Part shown: one piece after another, positions 1 through 54,475 of the stretch
Layout: the number at the start of each line of letters is the position of its first letter
Position numbering within the stretch: the first letter of the stretch is position 1
DNA from: an uncultured virus (IMG/VR IMGVR_UViG_3300028590_000012)
Lineage: Duplodnaviria > Heunggongvirae > Uroviricota > Caudoviricetes
Virus record (IMG/VR): IMGVR_UViG_3300028590_000012
Reading direction: 5' to 3' (one strand)
DNA length: 64,000 nt
The notes under the pieces: model-generated
What the model saw: the letters and a program-made list of their open reading frames with translations, nothing else
What the model was told of the DNA's origin: nothing
Databases searched by the model: none
Position numbers and translations under genes: made by a program

Positions 1-3000
1 AATGAAGTCCAGCGCTTTCTCGGTCAAGAAGTCCGGGAACCCATACTCGTACTTGAAGGCTTCTCCAAGACGGCGATATACGTCATCCACGCTTTCTGCG
101 GGCTTGGAAAGAACGTCTGCAAGGATTGAGTCGAGGGATTGTCCTGCTTCCTGCGTGATCACCTCTTTGAATTTGTCCTGTCCCTCCAGGCCTTTTTCAA
201 ACTGTGAGGCAATTTCCTTATTGGATTCTGGAATGGCGCGTTCCGCCATCGGCGCGACAAGATCTTGATCCAAGTTACCGTTCTTTGCTTGTTCGACAAT
301 ACTTACAAGCTTATCGCGGGTTTCCTCCCAGTTCTTGAAGAACGGACGAACGTCTCGGGACATGCTGGACGCTCTGCCTGTAAGGGCGTTGAGGAAATCC
401 ATCGCGGCATCAACCAGCCGCTCAAACAGGGGCTTGTCTTTCTGCCAGAGTCTCCTCCAGAACTTCCCGTCGTTGAAGTGTGCGCCGATGAAGTCTTCCG
501 TAAATTCATCTGCGGCTTGGAATTCCGAGTAGCCCTTGTTGTTGATCAGGTTGTTCTTGTAGGCCGTCCAGTCGGTGGCGTTATCCAAAACGAACTGCTG
601 GAGATCTTCGTACAGAGCTTTGTTCTTGGCCTTCAGGCTGTGGCCAAACTCGTGGCCGGTAAGGAACATCAATGGGTAGTTTCCATTGACATTGATGTAG
701 ATGGCGTCGGGATTACTCTTTAGGAAGAGAGCAGACGGTGCGGTTGACGGAAGATCCGTAAGGAATACTATACGCTTCCCGAAAATCTTCTCCAGTTCTC
801 CTGCAAATGCGTTGAAGTTTACGTCGTTGCCCAGCACTCGTCTTGCTGCTCTGGCGTCAGTTGGTTCCAGAGTTCGAGTGCTCGCGCCGGATCGGAAGGC
901 CTCAAGGTCGGCATCCCGTCCCGCCTCCGCAGTTCGTCCATTATCTGCCGAAATCCATTTTGACATGGAGCTAACCGCGTCATTCTGCGCAAGAGCTTCG
1001 ATCTCGCCACTGTCCGCAGCGAAGACTCCTTCATCAACGAGTCCTTCATCGGAATAAATCGGTCTGCCTTGCTCAAGGTCTTGGGCTTCAAGCGTGCCGA
1101 CCGTGCTTTCTTGGAATGCTTGTTCATCTTCTGGAGTTGTTTGTCGTGTCGTTTCTGCTGCGGTCTGTTCCTCCACGGGGGCGAGGATTTCGGAAATGTC
1201 GTTGATGCCACGGAGGAATAGGGCCTTCTCCACGTTGGTTCGGTAGCGGGTGATGGTCTTTTTCACCCCTTCTTGGGAAAGCCCCACTTCTGCTCCGATC
1301 TCGCGCAACGATTGTCCACTGGCGTATCCACGGAGAATGGTCCTATCTCTCTCGCTGGCCTGCGACATGACGGCTTGCAGAGCCTCTCGCGCCACTCCTT
1401 GCATCCTCTTGCGGTCATTTTCTGCGATGGTGGTTTCCTGTGGAAAGGGCGCTGTGGAGACGATGGTTTCCACGTCATCATCCTCCATCACAGGTCGGTC
1501 TGGGGTGACGTACTTACTGCGGATCTTCCTGCTCTTGGCGTAGTCCCGCATGTGGTTGCGGATGATACCTGCCGCATACTGAGGGAATGAAACGCCCTTG
1601 GCAGCATCGTAGGACTTGGCTGCTTTGACCAAGCCTTGCACCGCTTCACTCTGGCGGTCATTGAAATCGGTTCCAGGAATGTTGCTGAACTGACGGGCAA
1701 ATAGGGCCGTCAGCCCAAGAGGCTTGAAGGTGTCTGTTTCTTGGAGAAGCTGCTGCTGTTCGGGAGTGAGCGGAGTAACATCAATCCCCGCGTCCGACTC
1801 AAGTTCCTGCGTGGCCTCTACCAGCGCCTTGGCCTCTGCGGCCTCACTGGCGTTGGGGTTGGTGATGGTTTCCGACCAGCTACCGCTTTCCGCCATTGCG
1901 GCGACAGCGCTTTCACCAGAATCAAGGGCGGATTCCGAAACCACCAATAGTGTTGTATCTTTACCGCCACCGTAAAAGTATTCGTTCAGCCTAACCGAGT
2001 CATATCCAGCGTTGGCAATTCTGGCCGACAGTTCCTGTAAATTATTAGCCAGGGATTGTGCAAGCTCTTCGTCCTTCGCAAATTTAATGCCTGTTGTATT
2101 TACTCCTCCACTCTCTAACAAACGCTTGAGTTCTTGCGAACCAGAATCAAAGTCTGCCGATACCTCAGTTAAGTCTAAAGTGTTTTTTGGAAACACTCTA
2201 ATCTCTTTTGGATTAGCTCCAAAATTGGATGCGTATTCTGGATTTGATGCTGCGTAGAAGGGAACCTTCGGAATCCCATCATAAGAGTTTCTCGTGGCGT
2301 GGTATAGCGTCTCCCCACTCCGCATAGGAGCCGATCCTCCTCTGGACTCAATAATCGGAGCACCAGCCAAGGTGAACGCATTCTCAACGGCGCTGTGTAG
2401 AAGGGATGTCTGTGCCGCAGGCTTGTTGAACAATAGCCTTGCGATGGCGTTGACGAAACGCTGCCACAGGGTTTGCTTCTGTCCGGGGCGCACTCGGTCC
2501 AGCTTCTTGCGGAAGCCTGCGTTGGAGAATGCCTCGGCAACCATTTCTTCCACGTTGCTGATACCGTATTCCCCTTGAAACTCTGGCATGGCAGAGATTT
2601 CCTTGTGAATGGCTACAAGTTCGTCGTACGCCTTGCGGGCTTCTCCGGTCAGTTTCTCGGGATTGCGGATCTGGTCGAGGGTTACCCGATGGCTGGCCTC
2701 ATGGAGGATGGATAGTGCCGCTCCGGGGTTCCTGCGGGCGAGGTTGATGAGAGTTGCGGGGGTTTCTCCTCCGACATAGAGCGCACTCCAGGAACTATCA
2801 GGACGGTTGACGGCCTGAATATCCATGGCCGTTCCGAGCGCTAGGAGCCTCTTGGAAAGCGTTTTCGCCCAGTCAGGGGTAGATTTGCTGTCCGCGATCT
2901 TTTGGAGAACCTTGGTGGCTGTGGCATCCTCGTCAAAGACTCCCAGTTCGGAGAGTTCGTTGAACAGCGGAATGTTAACGCTAGGCAATGGCGCAGCGTT

Positions 3001-5184
3001 CGTGAGCGGGACGCCTTGGTAGGGGTCCGGTTCTGTGGAGATTTCCGTAGCGGCTTCTGCTTTGGCTTGCTGCTTGGCCGGAAGCTTCTTTATCGCCTTT
3101 TTGACCCGCTCGCTCTTGGGCTTTACGTAATGAGCAATGTCGTTCCGCTCAATTACTTGTGTCTCTCCTGTGCGGTCATTTACAACCTCGAAAGAATGCT
3201 CGTCGTTAGCACGTTCCGCCTCTGTTTGCGGGAGAGCGCGAGTAATGGTGAACGTCTGAGGATTTCCACGCAACTGGACACGCTGGGGCTGCTGTTGGGC
3301 TGGTTCCGTAGCTCCTGTACTTGCAGTAGGTGCTTGCTGAACTCCTTCTGGGACATTTGGCTGATCTTGCTGGATCGGAGGGTTTTCATTGACCGCTACC
3401 TCTTGGCCTTGCGCTTCACTGAGTACGCTATCGCTAATGCTTGCTTGCGCGGTTTCCCGGCCCTCAATTCCGTCTTCAGGTTGGACTTGAAGGCCTTCTT
3501 GCTGGGTGACTGTTTCAATGGCATTGGGTTCTCCTTCTGGTTGTGCTGTCGTGATCTGCGCTTGGGCAAGTGCAACATCCGCTAGAGCAGGTGTCTCTCC
3601 TGCCGCAAGGGCTTCTTCCACCCTTGCTCTGGCGGCTTGTTGCTCAGATTCGACAGGCAAATCTGCTTGTGTATCACCGACAGGGGTTTCGTTAACGACA
3701 ACGGGTTCAGAAAGGGGTTGCTCCGTCCCGGCTTCCGTTTCCACCGCTGGAGTTACGGCTGGGGTTGGAGCAAATTGGGTTTCCTCTGTAGCCTGAACAT
3801 GGGCTTCTAGAGAGGGCTTGGAAAGGTCTGCTGCTGGAGTTGAAAGCAGTTCGTCGATGACGCTGGCAGATTTGCGCTGGGACTCGATCCTGTTGTCAGT
3901 GACTTCTGCGGCTGCGATTTCCACCACGGCCTCGGCTGCCGCTGGAGAATCATTAGCCTCAAGGTTCTTAGCCTGGACTGCGGCTTGTTGAACAATAGCT
4001 GTTTCTTTGGCTGATGCCGCGCCAGCCACTTGTGCAACGGTAGTTCCACCTAATCCCACTGCTGCTCCAACTAGGACGGAACTTGCAACATCCTTTGTCA
4101 GGGGTCGCTCTGGGTCGTACTTCTCAAGTTGCTTGGCAACCGTGTTGAGCCAAAGTTGCTGTGTTCCCTCAGTTCCACCTTCCTGAGCGCCTTGCTTGGC
4201 AATTTCTGAAAGGGCTTGTCTGATCGTGGACTTTCCCTCCATGGCGCGAAGGGTTTTCCCCACGAGAAGCTTATCTGCCAGGACTTCCAGGGGGCCGGAT
4301 ACCGCCACGTATTCCTTGGCTGCTGCGTGGGCTTTTTCTGGAGTTGCTCCCGACTGGATCGCATCATCGTAACCCTCTTGGTAGAGCTGCCCAATAGCCA
4401 TCGCTGGGCCAAGACCCGGCACCGCATAGGCCGGGATATTGGCGAGTTGACCGATACCTTGGGCAGCTTGTCCTAGGAATGTGCTTTGAAATTCATCGCT
4501 GACTGGGAGAGCTTGGCGCGCACCTTCCCGCATTCCAGAGGCTTCATTGGCGGCTGTTTCGAGAAATCCTCCAACGTCTCTCCGTGCCTGCTGTGCTTCC
4601 GGGGTTACCGCAAGGTTCTCAATGCTCCCTGGAGTGGTGAGACGGGTAAGGTCTGCTTCCGCCGCAGCCTTATCCAGACCCACCTGGGCCTTCTGGGATT
4701 CGGCATCCTGTGGGGACATCCGACCCTCTTTCACCATGTCATCAATCATGGTGATGGTTTGGTCGAATCCTGCGACCTTCTCCTTGGCTCGGGCCAGCGG
4801 ATCAGCTTCAGAGATTTCCTGACCCAATCCACGGTAGATGCCTTCTGAGGACATCAACACGCCCTCGGACGTAGCTCCCCTGGCGATGGCTGGAAAAACA
4901 TTCCCTATACTGTCTTCAAGGCTGTTGGCAACATTCTCTAAGAAGTTGGTTTCCGGGAGCTTGGATGCGGCCTGAATCTCCTTCAGTTTTGCCGCTGTGG
5001 AGGTATGGAACTGGTCCTGAATGGCGGCATCCTGCCATGCCCCTACAGAGTCTCCATAGGAACGGGTAGCTTTGGCCCAATTCCCAAGCGTGATGGCCTT
5101 GTCCTCGGGGGATAGCTTCTGAAACTCCTCGTTTGTTTCAACCTCCTGCCAAGACGGCGGGGCAAGGATTTCCTCGGTGGGCAT
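1..5184 (-). CDS. Giant virion/internal (ejection-type) protein, >1700 aa, C-terminus beyond the window edge
   Basis: ATG at 5184 (MPTEEILAPPSWQEVETNEEFQKLSPEDK...). The frame was spot-checked as open and no ORF in this frame appears in the track, consistent with running off the edge. Ala/Glu/Gln-rich; follows other structural genes. Confidence 0.75.
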   Translation of the reverse strand, partial: MPTEEILAPPSWQEVETNEEFQKLSPEDKAITLGNWAKATRSYGDSVGAWQDAAIQDQFHTSTAAKLKEIQAASKLPETNFLENVANSLEDSIGNVFPAIARGATSEGVLMSSEGIYRGLGQEISEADPLARAKEKVAGFDQTITMIDDMVKEGRMSPQDAESQKAQVGLDKAAAEADLTRLTTPGSIENLAVTPEAQQARRDVGGFLETAANEASGMREGARQALPVSDEFQSTFLGQAAQGIGQLANIPAYAVPGLGPAMAIGQLYQEGYDDAIQSGATPEKAHAAAKEYVAVSGPLEVLADKLLVGKTLRAMEGKSTIRQALSEIAKQGAQEGGTEGTQQLWLNTVAKQLEKYDPERPLTKDVASSVLVGAAVGLGGTTVAQVAGAASAKETAIVQQAAVQAKNLEANDSPAAAEAVVEIAAAEVTDNRIESQRKSASVIDELLSTPAADLSKPSLEAHVQATEETQFAPTPAVTPAVETEAGTEQPLSEPVVVNETPVGDTQADLPVESEQQAARARVEEALAAGETPALADVALAQAQITTAQPEGEPNAIETVTQQEGLQVQPEDGIEGRETAQASISDSVLSEAQGQEVAVNENPPIQQDQPNVPEGVQQAPTASTGATEPAQQQPQRVQLRGNPQTFTITRALPQTEAERANDEHSFEVVNDRTGETQVIERNDIAHYVKPKSERVKKAIKKLPAKQQAKAEAATEISTEPDPYQGVPLTNAAPLPSVNIPLFNELSELGVFDEDATATKVLQKIADSKSTPDWAKTLSKRLLALGTAMDIQAVNRPDSSWSALYVGGETPATLINLARRNPGAALSILHEASHRVTLDQIRNPEKLTGEARKAYDELVAIHKEISAMPEFQGEYGISNVEEMVAEAFSNAGFRKKLDRVRPGQKQTLWQRFVNAIARLLFNKPAAQTSLLHSAVENAFTLAGAPIIESRGGSAPMRSGETLYHATRNSYDGIPKVPFYAASNPEYASNFGANPKEIRVFPKNTLDLTEVSADFDSGSQELKRLLESGGVNTTGIKFAKDEELAQSLANNLQELSARIANAGYDSVRLNEYFYGGGKDTTLLVVSESALDSGESAVAAMAESGSWSETITNPNASEAAEAKALVEATQELESDAGIDVTPLTPEQQQLLQETDTFKPLGLTALFARQFSNIPGTDFNDRQSEAVQGLVKAAKSYDAAKGVSFPQYAAGIIRNHMRDYAKSRKIRSKYVTPDRPVMEDDDVETIVSTAPFPQETTIAENDRKRMQGVAREALQAVMSQASERDRTILRGYASGQSLREIGAEVGLSQEGVKKTITRYRTNVEKALFLRGINDISEILAPVEEQTAAETTRQTTPEDEQAFQESTVGTLEAQDLEQGRPIYSDEGLVDEGVFAADSGEIEALAQNDAVSSMSKWISADNGRTAEAGRDADLEAFRSGASTRTLEPTDARAARRVLGNDVNFNAFAGELEKIFGKRIVFLTDLPSTAPSALFLKSNPDAIYINVNGNYPLMFLTGHEFGHSLKAKNKALYEDLQQFVLDNATDWTAYKNNLINNKGYSEFQAADEFTEDFIGAHFNDGKFWRRLWQKDKPLFERLVDAAMDFLNALTGRASSMSRDVRPFFKNWEETRDKLVSIVEQAKNGNLDQDLVAPMAERAIPESNKEIASQFEKGLEGQDKFKEVITQEAGQSLDSILADVLSKPAESVDDVYRRLGEAFKYEYGFPDFLTEKALDFI
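3396..3524 (-). CDS. Small basic protein nested in another frame of the giant ORF
   Basis: MPLKQSPSKKAFKSNLKTELRAGKPRKQALAIAYSVKRKAKR resembles a common small phage protein type (MPLKK...GKPQKQAIAIA). Confidence 0.6.
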   Translation of the reverse strand: MPLKQSPSKKAFKSNLKTELRAGKPRKQALAIAYSVKRKAKR

Positions 5185-7879: not shown

Positions 7880-8458
7880 CTACGACAAGAAATGATTCCA
7901 GTCCTGAACTCCATGCTTGTTCCTGATGAACAAGCTGACAGGAAGCTCCTTTGGGGCTTGTGGAGCACGGGAAAGCTTCAGTCCTGCTTCCTGTGGAAGC
8001 CTGTCAGCTTTCCTGCTATTCACCTTTTTATCAGCAAGAACGCAATTCTCCCAGGATGTAGCTCCTCCCTTTGATCGAGGAAGTACGTGGTCAATATTCG
8101 CTTCTTCGGGAGATAGTTTTCTTCCAGTGTATTGACAGATTCCATTGTCCCTTTCCCAAATTGTCTTGGATGAAAGCTTTGGTCGCTTCTTTGGAACCTT
8201 TGCGTAGTTGCACAGAACAATCACAGTGGGAACCCGAATCGCCATTTTTGAAGTATGTACTGCACAGTCAGTTTCCCTTACTGGCAGCTTCATCCAGTCA
8301 GTCCACTTTACGGCCTGCATGTTCTGACCATCTATGTCCAGTGCTGTGGCAACGTCCGTTGCGAGCATACAGATTGCTTCTGCAACAGTTTTGGTGTGGA
8401 TGGGCTGCCAAGATCGGTTCAGGACAAGAACCGTTGGCTTGTGGAGGATGTCTGTCAT
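7880..8458 (-). CDS. HNH endonuclease (McrA-like, tRNA-array-associated type)
   Basis: VLVLNRSWQP...IWERDNGICQYTG...IDHVLPRSKGGATSWENCV...NSRKADR. Confidence 0.9.
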   Translation of the reverse strand: MTDILHKPTVLVLNRSWQPIHTKTVAEAICMLATDVATALDIDGQNMQAVKWTDWMKLPVRETDCAVHTSKMAIRVPTVIVLCNYAKVPKKRPKLSSKTIWERDNGICQYTGRKLSPEEANIDHVLPRSKGGATSWENCVLADKKVNSRKADRLPQEAGLKLSRAPQAPKELPVSLFIRNKHGVQDWNHFLS

Positions 8459-8491
8459 AAATTCGTTAGTCTGTTCTTCTTGTTTTCGAAA

Positions 8492-8569
8492 TGGTGGAAG
8501 CGGACGGAGTTGCACCCTCACCTTGCCGGTTAAAAGCCGGATATGCTTGTCTGTTAACACTACGCTTCC
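8492..8569 (-). tRNA. tRNA-Lys(TTT)
   Basis: GGAAGCG/CGCTTCC acceptor, loop CTTTTAA, CCA. Confidence 0.85.
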
Positions 8570-8574
8570 TGAAA

Positions 8575-8650
8575 TGGTCCCTCATCCCGGTAATGCTCCG
8601 GGCACAGTGCTTTTTGAGAACACTCGGTCTGCTATTGCCATCAATGAGGG
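8575..8650 (-). tRNA. tRNA-Leu(CAA), short variable arm
   Basis: CCCTCAT/ATGAGGG, loop CTCAAAA, A73-CCA. Confidence 0.75.
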
Positions 8651-8651
8651 A

Positions 8652-8727
8652 TGGTCCCCATGATTGGTCTTGCACCAACACATTACATCCTTCTCGGGGA
8701 TGCTCCTCTGCTTTGGGATACATAGGG
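8652..8727 (-). tRNA. tRNA-Leu(GAG), short variable arm, C33
   Basis: CCCTATG/CATGGGG, CATCC-CCGAGAA-GGATG, CCA. Confidence 0.75.
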
Positions 8728-8730
8728 AAA

Positions 8731-8806
8731 TGGTACCGCCGACCGGTGCTGCCCCGGCTCGCTCCTCCTTGAAAGGGAGGCAGACATGCTGTTGTCCATC
8801 AGCGGC
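8731..8806 (-). tRNA. tRNA-Glu(TTC)
   Basis: CCTCC-CTTTCAA-GGAGG, CCA. Confidence 0.8.
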
Positions 8807-8812
8807 ATAAAT

Positions 8813-8886
8813 TAGAACCCGAACATGGACTCGCACCATGACTTGTCCTCGTTCAAAGCGAGGGTGACTACTTTGCCGACTCGGGT
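8813..8886 (-). tRNA. tRNA-Gln(TTG), ends CTA rather than CCA
   Basis: CCTCG-CTTTGAA-CGAGG. Confidence 0.75.
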
Positions 8887-8888
8887 AT

Positions 8889-8981
8889 TGGTCCTCCTGC
8901 TAGGTAACGCTCCTAGACTCGGCCCACTTCAAGGACTACTGACGATTATAAGTCGTCCGGTTCTCTTTGAACTACAGGAGG
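8889..8981 (-). tRNA. tRNA-Ile(TAT) with long variable arm
   Basis: CCTCCTG/CAGGAGG (same 5' acceptor strand as Ile-GAT), GACGA-CTTATAA-TCGTC, ~24-nt variable region. Confidence 0.8.
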
Positions 8982-8984
8982 AAA

Positions 8985-9071
8985 TGGCGGATCGCAGAGG
9001 ACTTGCACCCCATGCCCGAAGGCATCATCTGTTTAGCAAACAGCGAAGGCACCTTGGCCCCTATACGATCC
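8985..9071 (-). tRNA. tRNA-Ser(GCT)
   Basis: Loop TTGCTAA, long variable arm, G73-CCA. Confidence 0.85.
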
Positions 9072-9075
9072 AAAA

Positions 9076-9149
9076 TGGCTGGGCTCCGTGGATTCGCACC
9101 ACAACGACCTGTTTCAGAGACAGGCAGGCTACTATTACCTCAGAACCCA
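9076..9149 (-). tRNA. tRNA-Gln(CTG)
   Basis: CCTGT-CTCTGAA-ACAGG, G73-CCA. Confidence 0.8.
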
Positions 9150-9155
9150 ATAAAA

Positions 9156-9228
9156 TTGGATAGGAGTGTGCTATCCGCTACACCAACGAGCCGAAGCCCG
9201 TGTTGGATTCGAACCAACGCTTCTCCAA
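9156..9228 (-). ncRNA. Circularly permuted tRNA mimic (YrlA/Y-RNA-like module)
   Basis: Order is T arm GTTGG-TTCGAAT-CCAAC, acceptor ACGGGC-TTCG-GCTCGT closed by UUCG, D arm GTGT-AGCGGATA-GCAC, open stem GGAG/CTCC. Confidence 0.75.
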
Positions 9229-9230
9229 GA

Positions 9231-9305
9231 TGGAGGGAATCGAGAGACTTGCGCTCTCCTCTCAGGTTTACAAAACCCGTGCATCGCTTTCTATGCTTGA
9301 AACCC
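9231..9305 (-). tRNA. tRNA-Thr(TGT)
   Basis: CGGGT-TTTGTAA-ACCTG, CCA. Confidence 0.8.
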
Positions 9306-9309
9306 AAAA

Positions 9310-9395
9310 TGGCGGTCAGCGGAAGTATCGCGCTCCAAACCCGAAGGTTCCTTCCGTTTTCGAAACGGAGTCCATGCTTCATGGATTCACTAACC
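9310..9395 (-). tRNA. tRNA-Ser(CGA)
   Basis: TCCGT-TTCGAAA-ACGGA, long arm, G73. Confidence 0.8.
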
Positions 9396-9399
9396 AAAA

Positions 9400-9474
9400 T
9401 GGTGGTTCGCCACGGTACTGCCCCGTGTTCTCAAGGTTAAGAGCCAAGTGCATCACTTCGTATGCTTGCGAACC
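9400..9474 (-). tRNA. tRNA-Lys(CTT)
   Basis: GGTTCGC/GCGAACC, loop CTCTTAA, mismatched anticodon stem. Confidence 0.8.
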
Positions 9475-9476
9475 AA

Positions 9477-9563
9477 TGGCGGTTGATGGAGGTATTGCGC
9501 CCCAAGGATTGCTCCTCCACCTGTTTTCCAAACAGGGACAGCCCCTTGACTGTGCCACCAACC
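9477..9563 (-). tRNA. tRNA-Ser(GGA)
   Basis: CCTGT-TTGGAAA-ACAGG, long arm, G73. Confidence 0.8.
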
Positions 9564-9566
9564 AAA

Positions 9567-9792
9567 TTCAGACAATAGCCGCGATTCTGTAACCCTTTCG
9601 GGGTTCATCATTCGACTGACGATTTCTCGCCGGGAGTATTAACTTCCCCGCACCAACCCGCCTTCTCAGGGAAGCACTACCCTCAGGCTGTTTGGCTTGC
9701 TGATACCACGTAGTAAAAACGGACGAATCCTCCTACGGCTGCTTTTCAGTCGCGAACTTCCTCACCATTGCTGGCGCGATGAACTATCTGAA
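9567..9792 (-). ncRNA. rnpB: Minimal bacterial-type RNase P RNA (~226 nt; catalytic domain intact, S-domain largely missing)
   Basis: P1 TTCAGATA/TGTCTGAA; P2 GTTCATC/GATGAAC; P3 CGCCA-GCAA-TGGTG; GAGGAAGTTCGCGAC and ACAGAATCGCGGCTAT (P4); AGCAAG-CC-AAACAG...GGGTTGG-TGC (P15 with GGU); P18 GGCGA-GAAA-TCGTC; P19 CCC-GAAA-GGG. Confidence 0.85.
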
Positions 9793-9793
9793 A

Positions 9794-9869
9794 TGGAGCC
9801 CAAGGTCGGATGTGCGCCGACCATCTCCCGCTTACCGAGCGGGCGCATCGCTATCTATGCTTCATGGGC
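9794..9869 (-). tRNA. tRNA-Thr(GGT), C33
   Basis: CCCGC-TCGGTAA-GCGGG, CCA. Confidence 0.8.
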
Positions 9870-9874
9870 AAAAA

Positions 9875-9948
9875 TGGTCCGTGACCCCAGAGTTGCACTG
9901 GGCCTGCATCTTTCACAGAGATGAATGCTTCTGCTACACTATCCACGG
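9875..9948 (-). tRNA. tRNA-His(GTG), A73, no encoded G-1
   Basis: CATCT-CTGTGAA-AGATG, ACCA end. Confidence 0.8.
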
Positions 9949-9949
9949 A

Positions 9950-10017
9950 TGGAGCCTCATCTGGCATCTCAGCCAGCACGCCTATTTACGAAACAGGACT
10001 AGGATCTTACATGAGGC
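9950..10017 (-). tRNA. tRNA-Thr(CGT), reduced D arm
   Basis: GCCTCAT/ATGAGGC, CCTGT-TTCGTAA-ATAGG, only 68 nt. Confidence 0.65.
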
Positions 10018-10020
10018 AAA

Positions 10021-10099
10021 TGGCGCTCCGAGTAGGACTTGCACCCACAACCACATCGGTTCGAAGCCGAGTATGCAAAAGCTCTTACACCTCCGGAGC
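10021..10099 (-). tRNA. tRNA-Arg(TCG)
   Basis: Loop CTTCGAA, GCTCCGG/TCGGAGC, CCA. Confidence 0.8.
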
Positions 10100-10103
10100 A
10101 AAA

Positions 10104-10177
10104 TGGTGTTCCTGCCGAGATTCGCACTCGGGGCTGTACCTTCGCAGGGTACCGTGATTCTGCTTCACTACAGGAAC
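10104..10177 (-). tRNA. tRNA-Arg(GCG)
   Basis: GTACC-CTGCGAA-GGTAC, GTTCCTG/CAGGAAC, CCA. Confidence 0.85.
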
Positions 10178-10178
10178 A

Positions 10179-10253
10179 TGGTGCCCTACCCCAGTGCTGC
10201 CCTGGGTCATCCGCTTTGGAAGAGCGGCATCATAGCTGGTAGATCAGTAAGGC
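10179..10253 (-). tRNA. tRNA-Gly(TCC), A73
   Basis: CCGCT-CTTCCAA-AGCGG. Confidence 0.8.
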
Positions 10254-10269
10254 TTGTTGAACAATAAAG

Positions 10270-10344
10270 TGGCCGTTGGAATCCGTAACGCTCGGATCTC
10301 TGCGGTTCTTCAGACCGCCGCACATCTGTCTATGCCATCCAACG
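10270..10344 (-). tRNA. tRNA-Phe(GAA), G73
   Basis: GCGGT-CTGAAGA-ACCGC. Confidence 0.8.
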
Positions 10345-10348
10345 AGAA

Positions 10349-10422
10349 TGGTCCTCCGGGGTGGTACTGCCCCACCGTCTTGCGTTTATCAAACGCGGAT
10401 TCTGCTTTTGAACTACAGGAGG
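10349..10422 (-). tRNA. tRNA-Ile(GAT)
   Basis: Loop TTGATAA, CCTCCTG acceptor, CCA. Confidence 0.85.
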
Positions 10423-10423
10423 A

Positions 10424-10497
10424 TGGTGCCCAGCCGAGGAATCTCACCCCGTCTTCAGCTTTGTAAGAGCCGCTCGCTAATGTTACAACAGCCGGGC
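10424..10497 (-). tRNA. tRNA-Val(TAC)
   Basis: CGGCT-CTTACAA-AGCTG. Confidence 0.8.
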
Positions 10498-10500
10498 AAA

Positions 10501-10573
10501 TGGTGGCGGGGGTGGGAGTCGCGCCCACGGAGGCAAGCTTATGAGACTCGCTGGAATACTCATTCTCCCCGAC
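10501..10573 (-). tRNA. tRNA-Met(CAT) (initiator/elongator/Ile2 status unresolved)
   Basis: CGAGT-CTCATAA-GCTTG; fMet-like CGGGG/CCCCG acceptor. Confidence 0.75.
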
Positions 10574-10579
10574 ATAAAA

Positions 10580-10656
10580 TGGTGCCTGTGGCAGGATTTG
10601 CACCCGCAACCTCTGCGTTCTAAGCGCAGCGCCTCTGCTGGTTGGGCTACACAGGC
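10580..10656 (-). tRNA. tRNA-Leu(TAG), short variable arm
   Basis: GCCTGTG/CACAGGC, CTGCG-CTTAGAA-CGCAG, variable loop AGGTT. Confidence 0.85.
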
Positions 10657-10662
10657 ATAAAA

Positions 10663-10737
10663 TGGCGACCTCACCGGGTAACGCTCCCGATATTCCACCT
10701 TGAGAGGGTGGCGTCTCATCTTTTCGACTTTGAGGCC
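10663..10737 (-). tRNA. tRNA-Glu(CTC)
   Basis: CCACC-CTCTCAA-GGTGG. Confidence 0.8.
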
Positions 10738-10738
10738 A

Positions 10739-10805
10739 TGTTCCCAAACGGTAACGCTCCGTTTCATCAGACTTAGGAGGTCCGAGCCCGTCTATTGGTG
10801 GGAAC
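10739..10805 (-). tRNA. tRNA-Arg(CCT), reduced D arm, no encoded CCA
   Basis: GTTCCCA/TGGGAAC, CGGAC-CTCCTAA-GTCTG. Confidence 0.65.
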
Positions 10806-10811
10806 GGAAAG

Positions 10812-10887
10812 TGGCGGTTGAGACGGGTGCTGCCCCCGCTCGGTCCAGCTTGACGGGCTGGCATTGATGCTGTTCAAACTCTCAACC
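10812..10887 (-). tRNA. tRNA-Asp(GTC), C33
   Basis: CCAGC-CCGTCAA-GCTGG, G73. Confidence 0.8.
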
Positions 10888-10888
10888 G

Positions 10889-10974
10889 TGGCGGGTCACT
10901 GAGGTATCGCGCCCCAAGCCTTTCGGCTCCATCCGTTTTCAAGACGGCGACAGGACTTTCCTGTTTAATGACCC
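10889..10974 (-). tRNA. tRNA-Ser(TGA)
   Basis: Loop CTTGAAA, long arm, G73. Confidence 0.8.
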
Positions 10975-10978
10975 AAAA

Positions 10979-11053
10979 TGGCACCAGCACTTGGAGTCGC
11001 ACCAAGCTCGTGCGGTTTAACAGACCGACTGCGCACTCCGCGCATCTACTGGT
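10979..11053 (-). tRNA. tRNA-Asn(GTT)
   Basis: Loop CTGTTAA, G73-CCA. Confidence 0.8.
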
Positions 11054-11054
11054 A

Positions 11055-11121
11055 TATCCCATCACGGTAACGCTCCGTGCCTGAGTCTTTAGAAGAGACT
11101 TGTCCGTCTATCGGATGGGAT
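11055..11121 (-). tRNA. tRNA-Arg(TCT), reduced D arm, no encoded CCA
   Basis: ATCCCAT/ATGGGAT, AGTCT-CTTCTAA-AGACT. Confidence 0.7.
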
Positions 11122-11125
11122 GAAA

Positions 11126-11201
11126 TGGTCGGGCTACTGGGACTCGCACCCAGGATGTTCTGATCCCAAATCAGACGGATTAGCTGCTATCCTACAGCCC
11201 G
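11126..11201 (-). tRNA. tRNA-Pro(TGG)
   Basis: C1-G72, TCTGA-TTTGGGA-TCAGA, A73. Confidence 0.85.
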
Positions 11202-11202
11202 A

Positions 11203-11287
11203 TGGTGTATGGGGTCGGTAACGCTCCGACACAGTGCTAAGACGACGGGTTTACAGTCCGCGAGGCTCACTTTTGCCCAGCCCATAC
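11203..11287 (-). tRNA. tRNA-Tyr(GTA)
   Basis: Loop CTGTAAA, long variable arm, A73. Confidence 0.8.
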
Positions 11288-11288
11288 A

Positions 11289-11366
11289 TGGACTCCGTGG
11301 CGAGATTTCCACTCGCAAACCCTGAATTTTAAGAACAGGAGGTTTGGTAATTACCGTCACACGGAG
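11289..11366 (-). tRNA. tRNA-Leu(TAA), short variable arm, weak anticodon stem
   Basis: CTCCGTG/CACGGAG, loop CTTAAAA. Confidence 0.65.
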
Positions 11367-11380
11367 GTTGATTGTTAAAA

Positions 11381-11456
11381 TGGTGGAGATGAAGAGATTC
11401 GCACTCTCATAATCGCAACTTGCAAGGTTGGAGCATCCTCGTCTAGCCACATCCCC
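11381..11456 (-). tRNA. tRNA-Ala(TGC)
   Basis: G3:U70 pair, loop CTTGCAA. Confidence 0.85.
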
Positions 11457-11466
11457 ATTTTGAAAT

Positions 11467-11542
11467 TGGAGGCCAACCCCAGACTCCCACTGGGTAAATC
11501 GCGCTTTGCAGGCGCACGCTTCGAGTCTTTAGCTTGTTGGCC
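11467..11542 (-). tRNA. tRNA-Cys(GCA)
   Basis: Loop CTGCAAA, U73-CCA. Confidence 0.85.
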
Positions 11543-11543
11543 A

Positions 11544-11615
11544 TGGCAGGTTGCCTCAGTGCCGCCCTGAGCGGGATCGGATTTGGAGTCCAATCTGCAC
11601 GCTGGTGCGCAACCT
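11544..11615 (-). tRNA. tRNA-Trp(CCA)
   Basis: AGGTTGC/GCAACCT, loop CTCCAAA, G73. Confidence 0.8.
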
Positions 11616-11620
11616 ATAAC

Positions 11621-11691
11621 TGCGGTCGGCGGGAATTGCACCCGCATCTCATCGTTGGCAACGACAAATCCTGCTATTGAACGACGACCGC
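11621..11691 (-). tRNA. tRNA-Gly(GCC), A73, no encoded CCA
   Basis: GCGGTCG/CGACCGC, loop TTGCCAA. Confidence 0.85.
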
Positions 11692-49286: not shown

Positions 49287-50039
49287 ATGCCAAAGAAATT
49301 AAACCTTGCAGGTACCAGATTTTCACGATTGCTGGTCCTCGATGAGCATCCCATACGGAACGGCGGAAAAGTATGCTGGGAGTGCATTTGTGATTGCGGT
49401 CAGAAGTGTTATCCAAGTGGAACCAATTTAAAGACCGGTAACTCTACATCGTGCGGATGCTTCAAACAGGAACGTTCAGCGGCAGCTAAAACTACTCATG
49501 GGTTTTCAAAAAATGTTTCCGAATACCGGATATGGAAAAACATGAAGAGCAGATGCCTGAACCAGAGAAACCCGGCATTTAAAAACTATGGATCACGCGG
49601 CATAGCTGTATGTGATAGATGGAAAAATTCTTTTCAAAACTTCTTGTCCGATATGGGGAGACGCCCATCCACCCACCATTCCATAGACCGAATTGACAAC
49701 AATGGAAATTATGAACCCGGGAACTGCCGGTGGGCCACTGAATTCGAACAATCCAACAACAAGTCTTCAACTGTGATAATTGACGCTCACAAGAAGCCTG
49801 TTGCACTCACCATGTATCTTCGTTTTCTCGGAATTCCCGGCCTCCCTGTTTACAAGCTTCGCCATCGCTACCCAGATGCTTCAATGCAGGACATTATCAA
49901 TTTCCAATTAGAAAACCTTGGAAAGAGGGTGCGATTTCGCGCATGGCTCAAAACAAGGACCGCCAAGCCCCTGCCTGCCTATGTCGTGACTCCATCTGAT
50001 CAGACTGCCCCCACAATGTGGCCACAAGCCCCGCTATGA
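49287..50039 (+). mobile_element. Free-standing HNH homing endonuclease, opposite strand to neighbours
   Basis: WECICDCG...TSCGC...YRIWKNMKSRC...YGSRGIAVCDRW...SIDRIDNNGNYEPGNCRWAT. Confidence 0.85.
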
Positions 50040-51508: not shown

Positions 51509-53118
51509 GGTCCAACAAGTATCCAATTATACGTGGATGTGTCGGTAATGGCCCCAGTAAACAGCGCCGTCCCGTTAAATACCTGAACCGTGGGAGGTCC
51601 CGACACAGTTCCTCCAATAACTCGAAGAGTTGGAATAATTGTAGATCTTGTCGTAATAGCTGCATTTGTAATGCTCTGGGTTCCGCTGACCAAAACCACT
51701 GTCCCGCTAGATACTAGCTTTACTGTAGCAAATAGTGGAGAAACGGCATCCAGAAAAACCTGTCCCGCGATAGCGTGTCCCGCATTCGTAAGATGTACGC
51801 CGTCTGAATAGTAAGTTACATTACTTGCTGCGGCTTGTGGCCCTATGGTAGAATTGGCTGCAAAATCAACCAAAGCATCAGCGAATGTTGACCAGTTTGC
51901 CCGCAGCCATGTATTAAATGTATTTCTGGCGGTCTCAAATCCTGCTGAATCTTGACCTCCCGAAAATGATGCAGATCTTGGAAGAATTGTGCATGCAATT
52001 ACTTTCCATTGAGGGTTGAAGGTTTTTCTAGCCGCGCAGAAAGACTGATAATTCGTTTCTAACGTCCCAACAGAACCATTGGTCGCCAGGTCATTTGTTC
52101 CTGCAAATAATGATGTGAGATTAGTTTTACCAGGTACATAACTTGCGTTTACCATGGAAGAATTAAGGGATGCGATAACCGCCATAGTCGCTCCAGACTG
52201 TGCGGAATATTTCGGTGTTACAGGAAGCTGTGCTGCTGCAATTCCTGAATATGACTGGGCCAACGTACTCGCATTACTGCCAATTGTAAGACTGTCGCCA
52301 GTAAAGTTTAGGACATTGTCCCCAACTGAAGAAACTCCATGGTACGAAAATATACTGGAGATTTCCTGCTGTGAAAGCGTACGGTTGAATACATAACAGG
52401 CAATAGTTGGGTTCCCCCAAGGATACTGTCCTCCTTCAAATATGAATAACTTGGTCAGAGTGTCTGTTCCAGAATTATTACCTGTACCTGTAAAAAACAA
52501 GCCATTTGAACAAACCGTGGTAAGCGTAGATGAAAACGCAGTCGCTACCCCATTCACTGGTTGGGAGAAAACCGTTCCAATGAATCGAGTTGGGTTGTAT
52601 ATAGTTATTGATGGCTCATTAGAGTAAGCAATCATGCCACCTGTACTTACAGGGTTGGTCGCTATAAGCGTGCCATTTTGATTGATCGGCGCTTGGATCG
52701 GGCTGCCAATCCATACAACAGTCAGGCTTTGGTAGTTGATGGACAGACCAGTCAAATCATACCCTATATTTTGCCCAGGAGGAGGAATGGCACCGTTTGC
52801 CGTCCATGTCCATTGAGCAGCAGTACTAGATTGGACCAAGGAATTTCCGTTTCCCGATTTGTCATTCCATTGACTGACTCTGCCTGACGACAAAATAACA
52901 TCATCAATGGACCATGCCGCAATACAACCAGAAAATTGCCATGGTAATACAGGAACGGTTTTGGGAACACTGCTGCCAATTACCAACATCCCTGTTCCAG
53001 TCCATGTGCCAGTGCTCCAGATAGAACCATTCCAATAGGAATTACGGACGTTTCCGGTGGATTGACCGAAGGCTGTTATTGTCCAACAAGCGAAGAGGAG
53101 CGCGAAGAGTTTTTTCAT
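51505..53118 (-). CDS. SGNH/GDSL esterase-domain protein with LamG-like region and signal peptide
   Basis: GDSLT, GTND, DGVHL; VSQWNDKSGNG; N-terminal MKKLFALLFACWTITAFG. Confidence 0.8.
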   Translation of the reverse strand: MKKLFALLFACWTITAFGQSTGNVRNSYWNGSIWSTGTWTGTGMLVIGSSVPKTVPVLPWQFSGCIAAWSIDDVILSSGRVSQWNDKSGNGNSLVQSSTAAQWTWTANGAIPPPGQNIGYDLTGLSINYQSLTVVWIGSPIQAPINQNGTLIATNPVSTGGMIAYSNEPSITIYNPTRFIGTVFSQPVNGVATAFSSTLTTVCSNGLFFTGTGNNSGTDTLTKLFIFEGGQYPWGNPTIACYVFNRTLSQQEISSIFSYHGVSSVGDNVLNFTGDSLTIGSNASTLAQSYSGIAAAQLPVTPKYSAQSGATMAVIASLNSSMVNASYVPGKTNLTSLFAGTNDLATNGSVGTLETNYQSFCAARKTFNPQWKVIACTILPRSASFSGGQDSAGFETARNTFNTWLRANWSTFADALVDFAANSTIGPQAAASNVTYYSDGVHLTNAGHAIAGQVFLDAVSPLFATVKLVSSGTVVLVSGTQSITNAAITTRSTIIPTLRVIGGTVSGPPTVQVFNGTALFTGAITDTSTYNWILVGP

Positions 53119-53794: not shown

Positions 53795-54475
53795 TTAGGT
53801 GGCTGCCCGCATGTAGTCTGCGGTGGGTGAAGGTTTGAGGAACATCAGAAGATATTGGAACTCGCGGTAGAGGGTGTTCCACATCTTTCCGCGAAGAATG
53901 TAGCGCATATTGTTTGGAGCCAGACCATATTTTCGTGCAAGCCCCTTTACAGATGCGCCTTCTAGGTAATGCGCCTTAAGAGCTTCGCGCACTTTCTCTG
54001 CCGTCATTTTCTGGGCCATTCCATTTGTACTGGTGGATTTTGTGCGGTTATGAACATCCGCCCAGAGTTTTCGATTCAGGATCAAACTGATATTGCCAGC
54101 GTCATAGTTCATGATCCCCTTAATTTCCGCCAAGGTCTTTCCTTCGGAATACAGGTCAAAGATTTTGTGGATCTTTTCCACCGTCATGCGCGTAGATGAT
54201 TTCTTACGCTCGTTGTCTCTCACGGAGAGGAATTGCACATTTTCTGGACAATATCCCAGTTCATTGTCAATCCGGTCTGTGTGAAGGCCCTTCTTCCATC
54301 CTTTCGACAAGGCAAACTCTTCAAAAGCAAAATAGTTCTCGCGCCATTCTTGGCACACCGAGATTCCGCGAGCGCCATAATGTTTGAAGGAAATGTGTTT
54401 TGGATTATGGCACCGCTGGATCATGGAACGCCACACGCTATAAACCGGACCAAGGGATTTATGGGATTTATACAT
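53795..54475 (-). mobile_element. Free-standing HNH homing endonuclease downstream of the capsid gene
   Basis: WRSMIQRC...YGARGISVCQEW...DRIDNELGYCPENV plus two HTH-like repeats. Confidence 0.8.

Follow-up and report, generated by a model that had tools for sequence, protein, structure and literature searches.

A phage-borne array of 36 tRNA genes with A18/G55 in place of the G18/U55 elbow

The 64,000-nucleotide record IMGVR_UViG_3300028590_000012 (this whole stretch is referred to below as the window) comes from an uncultured virus of the Caudoviricetes and carries on its minus strand an array of tRNA genes that spans 11691 to 8495; the CCA encoded last reaches 8492. The genes were counted by our own cloverleaf parse and inspection of the gaps, giving 36. 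A covariance model trained on 24 of the array tRNAs and searched against the window recovered all 24 of them and 12 further sequences on the minus strand, exactly 36 matches in total at E ≤ 0.027, as well as three weak antisense matches on the plus strand (E 0.13-0.94). All 36 genes lie within 3.2 kb on one strand, closely spaced and non-periodic, in an order that is never repeated. Their anticodons represent all 20 amino acids, with four isoacceptors each for Leu, Arg and Ser, three for Thr, and two each for Gly, Glu, Gln, Lys and Ile. The array is interrupted by a 233-base structured spacer (9796-9564) and an 84-base capped tRNA-like element (9233-9150), and an HNH endonuclease gene (7880-8458, minus strand), a conserved partner of homologous arrays, lies directly downstream. 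The carrier is a phage, since the window encodes a terminase large subunit, a holin, a DnaB-like helicase, an exonuclease and three HNH genes (Pfam, PHROGs). Only 9 of the 36 tRNAs are detected by ARAGORN, and the Rfam tRNA model (RF00005) recovers 7 above the gathering threshold, rising to 9 when the cutoff is relaxed to E ≤ 10.

In the textbook tRNA elbow, G18 stacks inside the T loop, where it bonds to pseudouridine 55, and the outer 19-56 pair forms a flat face on which the ribosome, RNase P and other partners stack. The combination of G18-G19 with T54-U55-C56 that marks canonical elongators is absent from the array tRNAs. All 36 have G55, none has U55, and TTC is found in none of the T loops; positions 54-56 read TGC (13 tRNAs), AGC (7), GGC (6), CGC (6), TGG (2) or TGA (2). 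These are exactly the six classes given in the original prediction, which was made from the letters of the window and had placed G at position 55. It had also described the D loops as mostly AG rather than GG, and GG indeed occurs in only three D loops, each time as A-G-G (Ala, Ser-GGA and Ser-GCT). A model-based alignment contained 30 rows with a cleanly aligned T loop, of which 18 combine A18 G19 with G55 C56. Two others (Cys and Leu-TAA) combine A18 C19 with G55 G56, and one (Val) combines A18 U19 with G55 A56, so that the D loop follows position 56 in the three tRNAs for which this had been proposed. In the remaining rows, Lys-CTT and Thr-TGT are off by one base (AAG), Ala reads G-A, and six have no aligned D loop. 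The fourth tRNA without C56, Thr-CGT, has A56 in a six-base T loop and G-A-T in its D region, so that in all four the base following A18 is complementary to position 56. Rfam alignments of the four best-scoring members likewise place A under the G18 of the model and G under its U55. Positions 54/58 are T-A in 17 tRNAs, A-T in 7, G-G in 6 and C-A in 5, the four classes that had been predicted, and C-C in one. The sequence T54 G55 N56 R57 A58, corresponding to a UA handle followed by a G-N-R turn, is present in 17 of the 36; the other 19 have A-T, G-G, C-A or C-C at 54/58.

Read along the minus strand, on which all genes lie, the array begins with tRNA-Gly(GCC) (11621-11691; T loop TGCAATT, A-G in the D loop, CCA not encoded) and tRNA-Trp(CCA) (11547-11615; GGCGGCA), the latter with an atypical D region, no 8-9 linker and a score of 21 bits. 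tRNA-Cys(GCA) (11470-11542) has the T loop TGGGAGT, with G56, and A18 C19; tRNA-Ala(TGC) (11384-11456; TGCGAAT) has G3-U70 and a weak D stem; and tRNA-Leu(TAA) (11292-11366; TGGAAAT, with G56) has A-C in the D loop, a weak D stem, a short variable loop and two U-U pairs in the anticodon stem. These are followed by tRNA-Tyr(GTA) (11206-11287; AGCGTTA, long variable arm), tRNA-Pro(TGG) (11129-11201; TGCGAGT), tRNA-Arg(TCT) (11055-11121; AGCGTTA, 30 bits), which has a reduced D arm and no encoded CCA, tRNA-Asn(GTT) (10982-11053; TGCGACT), tRNA-Ser(TGA) (10892-10974; CGCGATA, long variable arm), tRNA-Asp(GTC) (10815-10887; GGCAGCA, C33), tRNA-Arg(CCT) (10739-10805; AGCGTTA), again with a reduced D arm and no encoded CCA, and tRNA-Glu(CTC) (10666-10737; AGCGTTA). 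The central part of the array comprises tRNA-Leu(TAG) (10583-10656; TGCAAAT, short variable loop), tRNA-Met(CAT) (10504-10573; CGCGACT), which is the sole CAT tRNA and has an atypical D region, tRNA-Val(TAC) (10427-10497; TGAGATT, with A56), in which A18 U19 lie in a 7-base D loop, tRNA-Ile(GAT) (10352-10422; GGCAGTA), tRNA-Phe(GAA) (10273-10344; AGCGTTA), tRNA-Gly(TCC) (10182-10253; GGCAGCA), tRNA-Arg(GCG) (10107-10177; TGCGAAT) and tRNA-Arg(TCG) (10024-10099; TGCAAGT). The weakest member is tRNA-Thr(CGT) (9953-10017; 11.6 bits, E 0.027), with the six-base T loop TGAGAT and a degenerate D arm. tRNA-His(GTG) (9878-9948; TGCAACT) has A73 and lacks G-1, and tRNA-Thr(GGT) (9797-9869; CGCACAT, hence C54/C58) has C33. 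Beyond the spacer lie tRNA-Ser(GGA) (9480-9563; CGCAATA, long variable arm), tRNA-Lys(CTT) (9403-9474; GGCAGTA, two U-U pairs in the anticodon stem), tRNA-Ser(CGA) (9313-9395; CGCGATA, long variable arm) and tRNA-Thr(TGT) (9234-9305; CGCAAGT, two U-U pairs in the acceptor stem). Past the capped element, the array ends with tRNA-Gln(CTG) (9079-9149; TGCGAAT), tRNA-Ser(GCT) (8988-9071; TGCAAGT, long variable arm), tRNA-Ile(TAT) (8892-8981; AGCGTTA, 24-base variable region), tRNA-Gln(TTG) (8816-8886; TGCGAGT, CCA not encoded), tRNA-Glu(TTC) (8734-8806; GGCAGCA), tRNA-Leu(GAG) (8655-8727; TGCAAGA, short variable loop, C33), tRNA-Leu(CAA) (8578-8650; AGCATTA, short variable loop) and tRNA-Lys(TTT) (8495-8569; TGCAACT).

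The same swap was sought elsewhere by scanning two sequence collections for an A14-G15-C16-A18-G19 D loop together with a G55 T arm and CCA, which yielded at least 121 loci from viruses and at least 129 from genomes. These loci gave 1128 non-redundant cloverleafs, from which the 118 tRNAs selected by the pattern itself were removed, leaving 1010. Seven-base D loops, whose numbering is unambiguous, were taken first. Viral contigs (n = 152) contained 41 A18/G55, 98 G18/T55, 4 G18/G55 and no A18/T55 tRNAs, and genome contigs (n = 120) contained 73, 31, 6 and 2, respectively. When all loop lengths were included (n = 1010), GG was found with T55 in 543 and with G55 in 25, and AG without GG was found with G55 in 285 and with T55 in 10. 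As a second method, mixed arrays were aligned with Infernal (the 150 best of 256 matches, drawn from 11 arrays); 18/55 read A/G in 81, G/T in 33, A/T in 4 and G/G in 1, with 31 other combinations, and D-loop columns 15, 16, 20 and 21 showed no association with position 55. By both alignment methods, position 18 covaries almost perfectly with position 55, as either A18/G55 or G18/U55. Among the scan loci, some arrays are all or nearly all G55 (12 of 12 tRNAs in L030, 11 of 11 in L038 and 22 of 24 in L123), and others are mixed, such as L052 with 15 G55 and 9 T55 tRNAs.

A mirror scan with the canonical spelling was used as a control. Because T55 was found in 529 of its 595 non-ascertained cloverleafs and G55 in only 37 (6%; C55 in 16 and A55 in 13), the occurrence of G55 in 36 of 36 array tRNAs is not explicable by chance. 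The 7-base D loops of the control comprised 7 A18/G55, 128 G18/T55, 2 A18/T55 and no G18/G55 tRNAs. G55 was found in none of the 55 tRNAs in arrays of cultured phages (Xanthomonas BUDD, Phaeobacter MD18 and Myxococcus Mx1) and in none of the 26 tRNAs in the plasmid array of the cyanobacterium Kovacikia, all 26 of which have TTC. The dispersed tRNAs of three Verrucomicrobia genome bins that contain G55 arrays are mostly canonical as well, with TTC and GG in 34 of 40; five of the other six have G55. Compensation at the outer pair is also seen outside the window: T56 is accompanied by a purine and A at 18-19 in 19 of 28 tRNAs versus 99 of 864 controls, and G56 by a purine and C in 10 of 27 versus 136 of 864. 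The structural alignment by which the original prediction was to be checked supports selected remodeling, with 18/55 and 19/56 covarying in the array and in hundreds of tRNAs elsewhere. Pairs other than T-A at 54/58 occur in 147 of 352 G55 tRNAs versus 60 of 596 T55 tRNAs.

T loops in general consist of a UA handle and a UNR or GNR turn, and according to PMC2615604 the contact to the intercalating base is usually made through a G-clamp and "more rarely a U-clamp," as in tRNA; the same source describes 54-58-type pairs that are C:A or G:G. The array T loops resemble the G-clamp T loops of rRNA, RNase P, riboswitches and the AMP aptamer, which carry a U-G-N-R-A signature with a GNR turn clamping an intercalated base (PMC2615604). 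Unlike those examples, the array RNAs are tRNAs, and their geometry is predicted rather than solved. The precedent would provide a structural rationale for G55 with an intercalated A18. The new element here is that tRNAs themselves would use a G-clamp with A18, a three-dimensional arrangement suggested by the 18/55 covariation. Animal mitochondrial tRNAs also lack the G18-G19 and T-pseudouridine-C consensus. In those tRNAs, the D and T loops vary in size and conserved nucleotides are lost (PMC2777451), whereas the array combines standard loop sizes with one specific, covarying replacement. In the literature searched, which did not extend to the supplements of PMC8421152, no description of natural A18/G55 tRNAs was found, and U55G was encountered, in the text available, only as an engineered mutant.

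U55 and G18 are described as conserved or universal in tRNA (PMC7912444, PMC4810234), and U55, G18 and U54 are the sites of TruB, TrmH and TrmA, respectively (PMC7912444). G55 removes the TruB site and A18 the TrmH site from the array tRNAs, and the U54 used by TrmA is missing in 19 of 36. Other modification sites shift in the same direction among tRNAs elsewhere: a base other than U is found at position 54 in 113 of 284 G55-type versus 27 of 514 T55-type tRNAs and at position 8 in 64 of 284 versus 56 of 514, the fraction of U in the D loop is 0.16 versus 0.22, and the ratio of Arg-GCG to Arg-ACG is 11:3 versus 4:15. The smaller number of modification sites in G55-type tRNAs fits a set built to work without host modification, and the array tRNAs would be expected to have lost the corresponding modifications. 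With a single CAT tRNA, and with Arg-GCG in place of Arg-ACG, the window would require neither lysidine nor inosine.

Most array tRNAs retain the features of functional molecules. The cloverleaf has four arms with a 7-bp acceptor stem and 5-bp anticodon and T stems; all seven acceptor pairs are formed in 30 tRNAs, six in five and five in one, and the T stem is fully paired in 32 of 36. Five to six members have a reduced D arm. U33, which is near-universal in tRNA, is present in 33 of 36, a purine is found at position 37 in all 36, and CCA is encoded in 32. Identity features include G3-U70 in tRNA-Ala and long variable arms in the four tRNA-Ser and in tRNA-Tyr; the discriminator bases, read directly, are mostly in line with bacterial identity rules. 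Two variable-region features were observed in addition. Bacterial tRNA-Leu normally has a long variable arm; in all four tRNA-Leu of the array, as in the tRNA-Leu of L094 and L052, the variable loop is short (4-6 bases in the array). tRNA-Ile(TAT) has a variable region of 22-24 bases in three unrelated arrays (window 8892-8981, minus strand; L030 5583-5673; and, in minus-strand coordinates, L052 3574-3662), which points to a long-arm tRNA-Ile(UAU) that is conserved across arrays.

Evidence for selection on the stems came from two sources. In an alignment of 21 G55-type tRNA-Phe sequences, 96.8% of stem cells are paired, a share inflated because the members were picked by a finder that demands pairing; 154 cells carry double changes, as compared to 41.8 ± 4.9 in shuffles, and the covariation score is 0.918 versus 0.14-0.20 for slid partners. 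Contigs from four soil runs were also compared with the window, and a related 73-kb contig, which comes from an independent soil study, matches it at about 90% identity over 9307-10840. Its tRNA-Ser(CGA) differs in the D stem by three compensatory pair changes (9385/9371, 9383/9373 and 9382/9374), found among the 40 of 176 differences listed, and these provide support that is independent of the pairing-demanding finder. In the same contig, single tRNA genes or blocks are replaced by different sequence of similar length at 8462-8575, 8655-8728, 9072-9307 and 10840-11359, and 505 bases are inserted at 8887-8889; the array thus evolves by cassette-like replacement.

The recoded state was not spread by one recent duplicate. 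Over 50 body positions, G55 tRNAs differ from T55 tRNAs with the same anticodon by 24.8, less than the 28.1 that separates G55 tRNAs with different anticodons, which is itself about the value for unrelated pairs (28.4); the state therefore resides on many separate isoacceptor lineages. Same-anticodon G55 tRNAs differ among themselves by 22.1.

Three gene-order blocks of the array (G-gcc ... P-tgg, R-tct, N-gtt; I-gat, F-gaa, G-tcc; and R-gcg, R-tcg) recur in L123, L189, L146, L198, L160 and L151, all of which are contigs of Verrucomicrobiota genome bins. Gene order is thus common to these bacterial bins and a phage, a pattern indicating horizontal spread. The HNH protein adjoining the array (7880-8458) shares 57% identity with its counterpart next to the L146 array and 34% (E 1e-24) with the one beside the trn operon of Anabaena. 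Given that gene order and HNH partner are shared with the Verrucomicrobiota arrays, the array is classified from sequence as a phage-borne member of the L-array family with a recoded elbow. L-arrays comprise up to 43 genes, are horizontally transferred, occur in Verrucomicrobia, Planctomycetes and Cyanobacteria among others, and neighbor a homing endonuclease (PMC8421152). The original prediction had named the neighboring HNH protein as a candidate elbow nuclease; this is unlikely because its homologue adjoins the Anabaena operon, which is mostly canonical. The protein is in keeping with the homing-type partner that PMC8421152 describes for tRNA arrays.

Among the closest known systems is the 26-gene trn operon of Anabaena sp. 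PCC 7120, which is induced under translational stress and from which 23 of 26 tRNAs were detected and charged in vivo under that stress (PMC8421152). The array in the window resembles it in packing dozens of tRNA genes closely together in one orientation and without periodicity, next to a homologous HNH gene and in a mobile context. Unlike the operon, which is mostly canonical, it is recoded in 36 of 36 tRNAs and is carried by a phage. Our own parse of the Anabaena operon identified one complete A18/G55 gene, for a tRNA-Ile(GAT) that combines the T loop GGCAGTA with A-G in the D loop; a further T arm with G55 lies near 52000. According to PMC8421152, the operonic tRNA-Ile(GAU) could be detected, was charged in vivo and migrated aberrantly in gels; it was matched to this gene by anticodon only. 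The terms "T-loop," "G18," "U55," "G55" and "elbow" each occur 0 times in the text of PMC8421152 as available.

The neighborhoods of homologous arrays contain genes of RNA repair. Pfam searches of 55 flanking open reading frames (ORFs) from 15 G55 arrays identified TROVE/Ro60 in L151, L189 and L149, RtcB in L190, RlaP in L139, and HNH in L146 and L030. In tblastn searches over all loci, Rsr lies beside arrays in 9 genome loci (8 contigs), and among arrays of the genome scan RtcB does so in 3 loci and RlaP in one. L-arrays had already been linked to RtcB (PMC8421152). The Rsr/RtcB association was seen for bacterial contigs and not for the viral loci examined.

The capped element (9150-9233, minus strand) is circularly permuted and has the only canonical elbow in the array, with the T loop TTCGAAT and GG in the D loop. 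Its acceptor stem is closed by a UUCG loop and the molecule is open at the position of the anticodon loop, with a predicted four-way junction (minimum free energy [MFE] -24.1, z -1.4). The order of T arm, closed acceptor-like stem-loop and D arm, together with the canonical T loop and GG, resembles the tRNA-like domain of YrlA; YrlA-type bacterial Y RNAs are tRNA mimics bound by Ro60/Rsr (PMC4201824). Membership of that family was rejected: the 15 bases that separate the T arm from the tRNA before it lack a GNCGAA(N)G Ro-binding motif, there is no match to Rfam YrlA (RF02553) at E ≤ 10, and no TROVE match among the 80 ORFs of the 64-kb window would indicate Rsr nearby. A script searching for the capped-tRNA topology returned 526 matches, mostly neighboring tRNAs with chance-paired acceptor strands. 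The spacer (9564-9796, minus strand) folds with a long terminal stem (MFE -76.2, z -1.9) and has no Rfam match. As in Y RNAs, words resembling G-N-C-G-A-A-N-G and YUAY are present in it, and it is retained in the related soil contig, where few of the 40 of 176 differences listed fall inside it. In L189, from a Verrucomicrobiae genome bin, three tandem tRNA-like units (minus strand, about 3160-3800) lie between the G55 array and Rsr (38-1816, minus strand). Rfam assigns two of them to YrlA (RF02553; E 2e-7 and 3e-6), with scores short of the gathering threshold, and the third to a Deinococcus-type Y RNA, and the YrlA-like units carry GNCGAA and YUAY motifs.

Elsewhere in the window, a giant ORF of more than 1728 amino acids (1-5184, minus strand) runs off the end; it has a sigma-70 region 2 match at residues 1163-1220 and a weak virion RNA polymerase match. 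The three HNH endonuclease genes of the 64 kb lie at 7880-8458, 49287-50039 and 53795-54475, and only the first is of the array-linked type. Sequence of the array is present in soil metagenomes of at least two further studies, and a search for RNA runs containing the stretch listed none. With the array as query, blastn in distant mode found no match in GenBank phages, and among plasmids a single 58-base match was found, on the Kovacikia plasmid, whose array is canonical. For a neighboring 348-aa protein, no relatives were found in viral contigs.

On balance, the array is probably a complete, working phage tRNA set of the L-array family with a differently built elbow, one that would run without the host enzymes that read G18, U54 and U55. 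A18 would pair with G55 and convert the U-clamp T loop of tRNA into one of the G-clamp type, and the outer 19-56 pair would be retained by compensation wherever position 56 changes. Our best guess at the benefit is that such tRNAs could fold and work without TrmH, TrmA and TruB and would escape their recognition, leaving a self-sufficient spare tRNA pool for the phage or for a stressed cell. The view put forward at the outset, that this is selected remodeling rather than decay, is well supported by the intact cloverleafs, the 18/55 and 19/56 covariation, the compensatory stem changes and the many isoacceptor backgrounds. The two motives suggested with it, evasion of elbow-reading nucleases and freedom from modification, are candidates that the data do not distinguish from compensated drift. 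Several points weigh on the other side, besides the finder-inflated pairing of tRNA-Phe and the matching of the Anabaena tRNA by anticodon. The contingency tests for covariation ignore relatedness, though both states occur side by side within single arrays. Because A18/G55 and G18/U55 tRNAs coexist in the mixed array of one phage, the recoded elbow is unnecessary for a working phage tRNA, and an all-or-none private pool is not general. Under a strict rule requiring at least two bases after position 19, A56 shows no enrichment of U19 (6 of 29 versus 171 of 864), and by eye most good A56 tRNAs have A-T directly preceding A21. Six members (Trp, Arg-TCT, Arg-CCT, Met, Thr-CGT and Leu-TAA) look weak, their D arms being reduced or poorly paired, three have C33 (Asp-GTC, Thr-GGT and Leu-GAG), three others have U-U pairs in stems and four have no encoded CCA; some members may be pseudogenes. 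Finally, Rsr was found in the flanks of 0 of 121 viral loci from the G55 scan and 0 of 123 control viral loci among the matches listed.

Three other explanations were considered. The array might serve no role in translation at all and consist of decaying pseudo-tRNAs or of tRNA-shaped decoys, primers or regulators. Such an origin could explain why ARAGORN and Rfam miss 27 of the 36, why six D arms are poor and some members have U-U pairs or C33, and why a tRNA mimic lies inside the array. We regard it as highly improbable in view of R37 in every member, U33 in 33 and CCA in 32, G3-U70 in tRNA-Ala, coverage of every amino acid, discriminator bases mostly as bacterial identity rules require, the compensatory changes in tRNA-Phe and tRNA-Ser(CGA), and the reported charging of an A18/G55-type tRNA-Ile in Anabaena (PMC8421152). 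Compensated drift is a less extreme alternative, in which A18/G55 would be near-neutral, would have arisen under relaxed constraint and would have spread by hitch-hiking with the arrays. The background of G55 in about 6% of cloverleafs (37 of 595) from arrays picked via a canonical tRNA agrees with this, as do the synteny of all-G55 arrays, hence one family, the slightly closer relationship of same-anticodon G55 tRNAs to each other (22.1) than to T55 tRNAs (24.8), and the rarity of intermediates (10 G18/G55 and 2 A18/T55 of 320), which a compensatory path predicts. Drift nevertheless seems doubtful to us: to reach 36 of 36 on backgrounds as unlike as unrelated tRNAs (28.1 versus 28.4), it would need many parallel double changes or a very old origin, the other modification sites shift in the same direction, and G55 is absent from the 55 cultured-phage tRNAs and the 26 tRNAs of the cyanobacterial plasmid.

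The third explanation also invokes selection and tentatively assigns it a different cause, namely escape from attack on the elbow: a nuclease or inactivating factor that reads G18, T54 and pseudouridine 55 would destroy canonical tRNAs, and the A18/G55 set would survive. The factor might conceivably be a host defense, the toxin of a competitor or a host shut-off function of the phage itself. One toxin of contact-dependent inhibition reportedly cleaves between T54 and pseudouridine 55; no phage defense is known to target the tRNA elbow. tRNAs of phage T5 reportedly escape anticodon nucleases through loop changes, and thus likewise differ from host tRNAs at the nucleotides a nuclease reads. The T5 changes reportedly lie in the anticodon loop and were tested, whereas the change in the array is at the elbow and array-wide, with no nuclease known. 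A complete set covering 20 amino acids with all 36 members recoded is what replacement of the host pool would require, homologous bacterial arrays adjoin Rsr/TROVE, RtcB and RlaP, the only canonical elbow belongs to a capped tRNA mimic, which could not be charged and might serve as a decoy, and the Anabaena L-array is induced under translational stress (PMC8421152). Set completeness, RNA-repair neighborhoods and the capped mimic fit escape from attack as well as the smaller number of modification sites fits independence from modification. Pfam and PHROGs searches of 74-80 ORFs revealed no candidate nuclease in the window, mixed arrays retain canonical tRNAs, and the idea of an elbow attack is purely inferential; we consider it possible but rather unlikely. 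The same modest likelihood applies to the wider proposal of a private tRNA pool that dispenses with the host enzymes modifying the tRNA core, is blind to readers of G18, T54 and pseudouridine 55 and keeps translation going when canonical tRNAs are cut, sequestered or unmodified. Such a pool might, as a speculative extension, serve phage infection in the case of the window and the Rsr/RtcB response to RNA damage in bacteria, with the capped mimic as a decoy for the same factor.

As standard finders overlook three quarters of genes of this kind, tRNA counts for phages and for bacteria that carry L-arrays are too low. The Rsr, RtcB and RlaP neighborhoods suggest that accessory tRNA arrays are tied to RNA-damage responses. 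A18/G55 tRNAs provide a direct handle on the roles of pseudouridine 55, Gm18 and m5U54, and as natural "orthogonal-elbow" tRNAs they may be of use in engineering. With a whole, apparently functional tRNA set lacking G18 and U55, the tRNA elbow would have a second natural solution.

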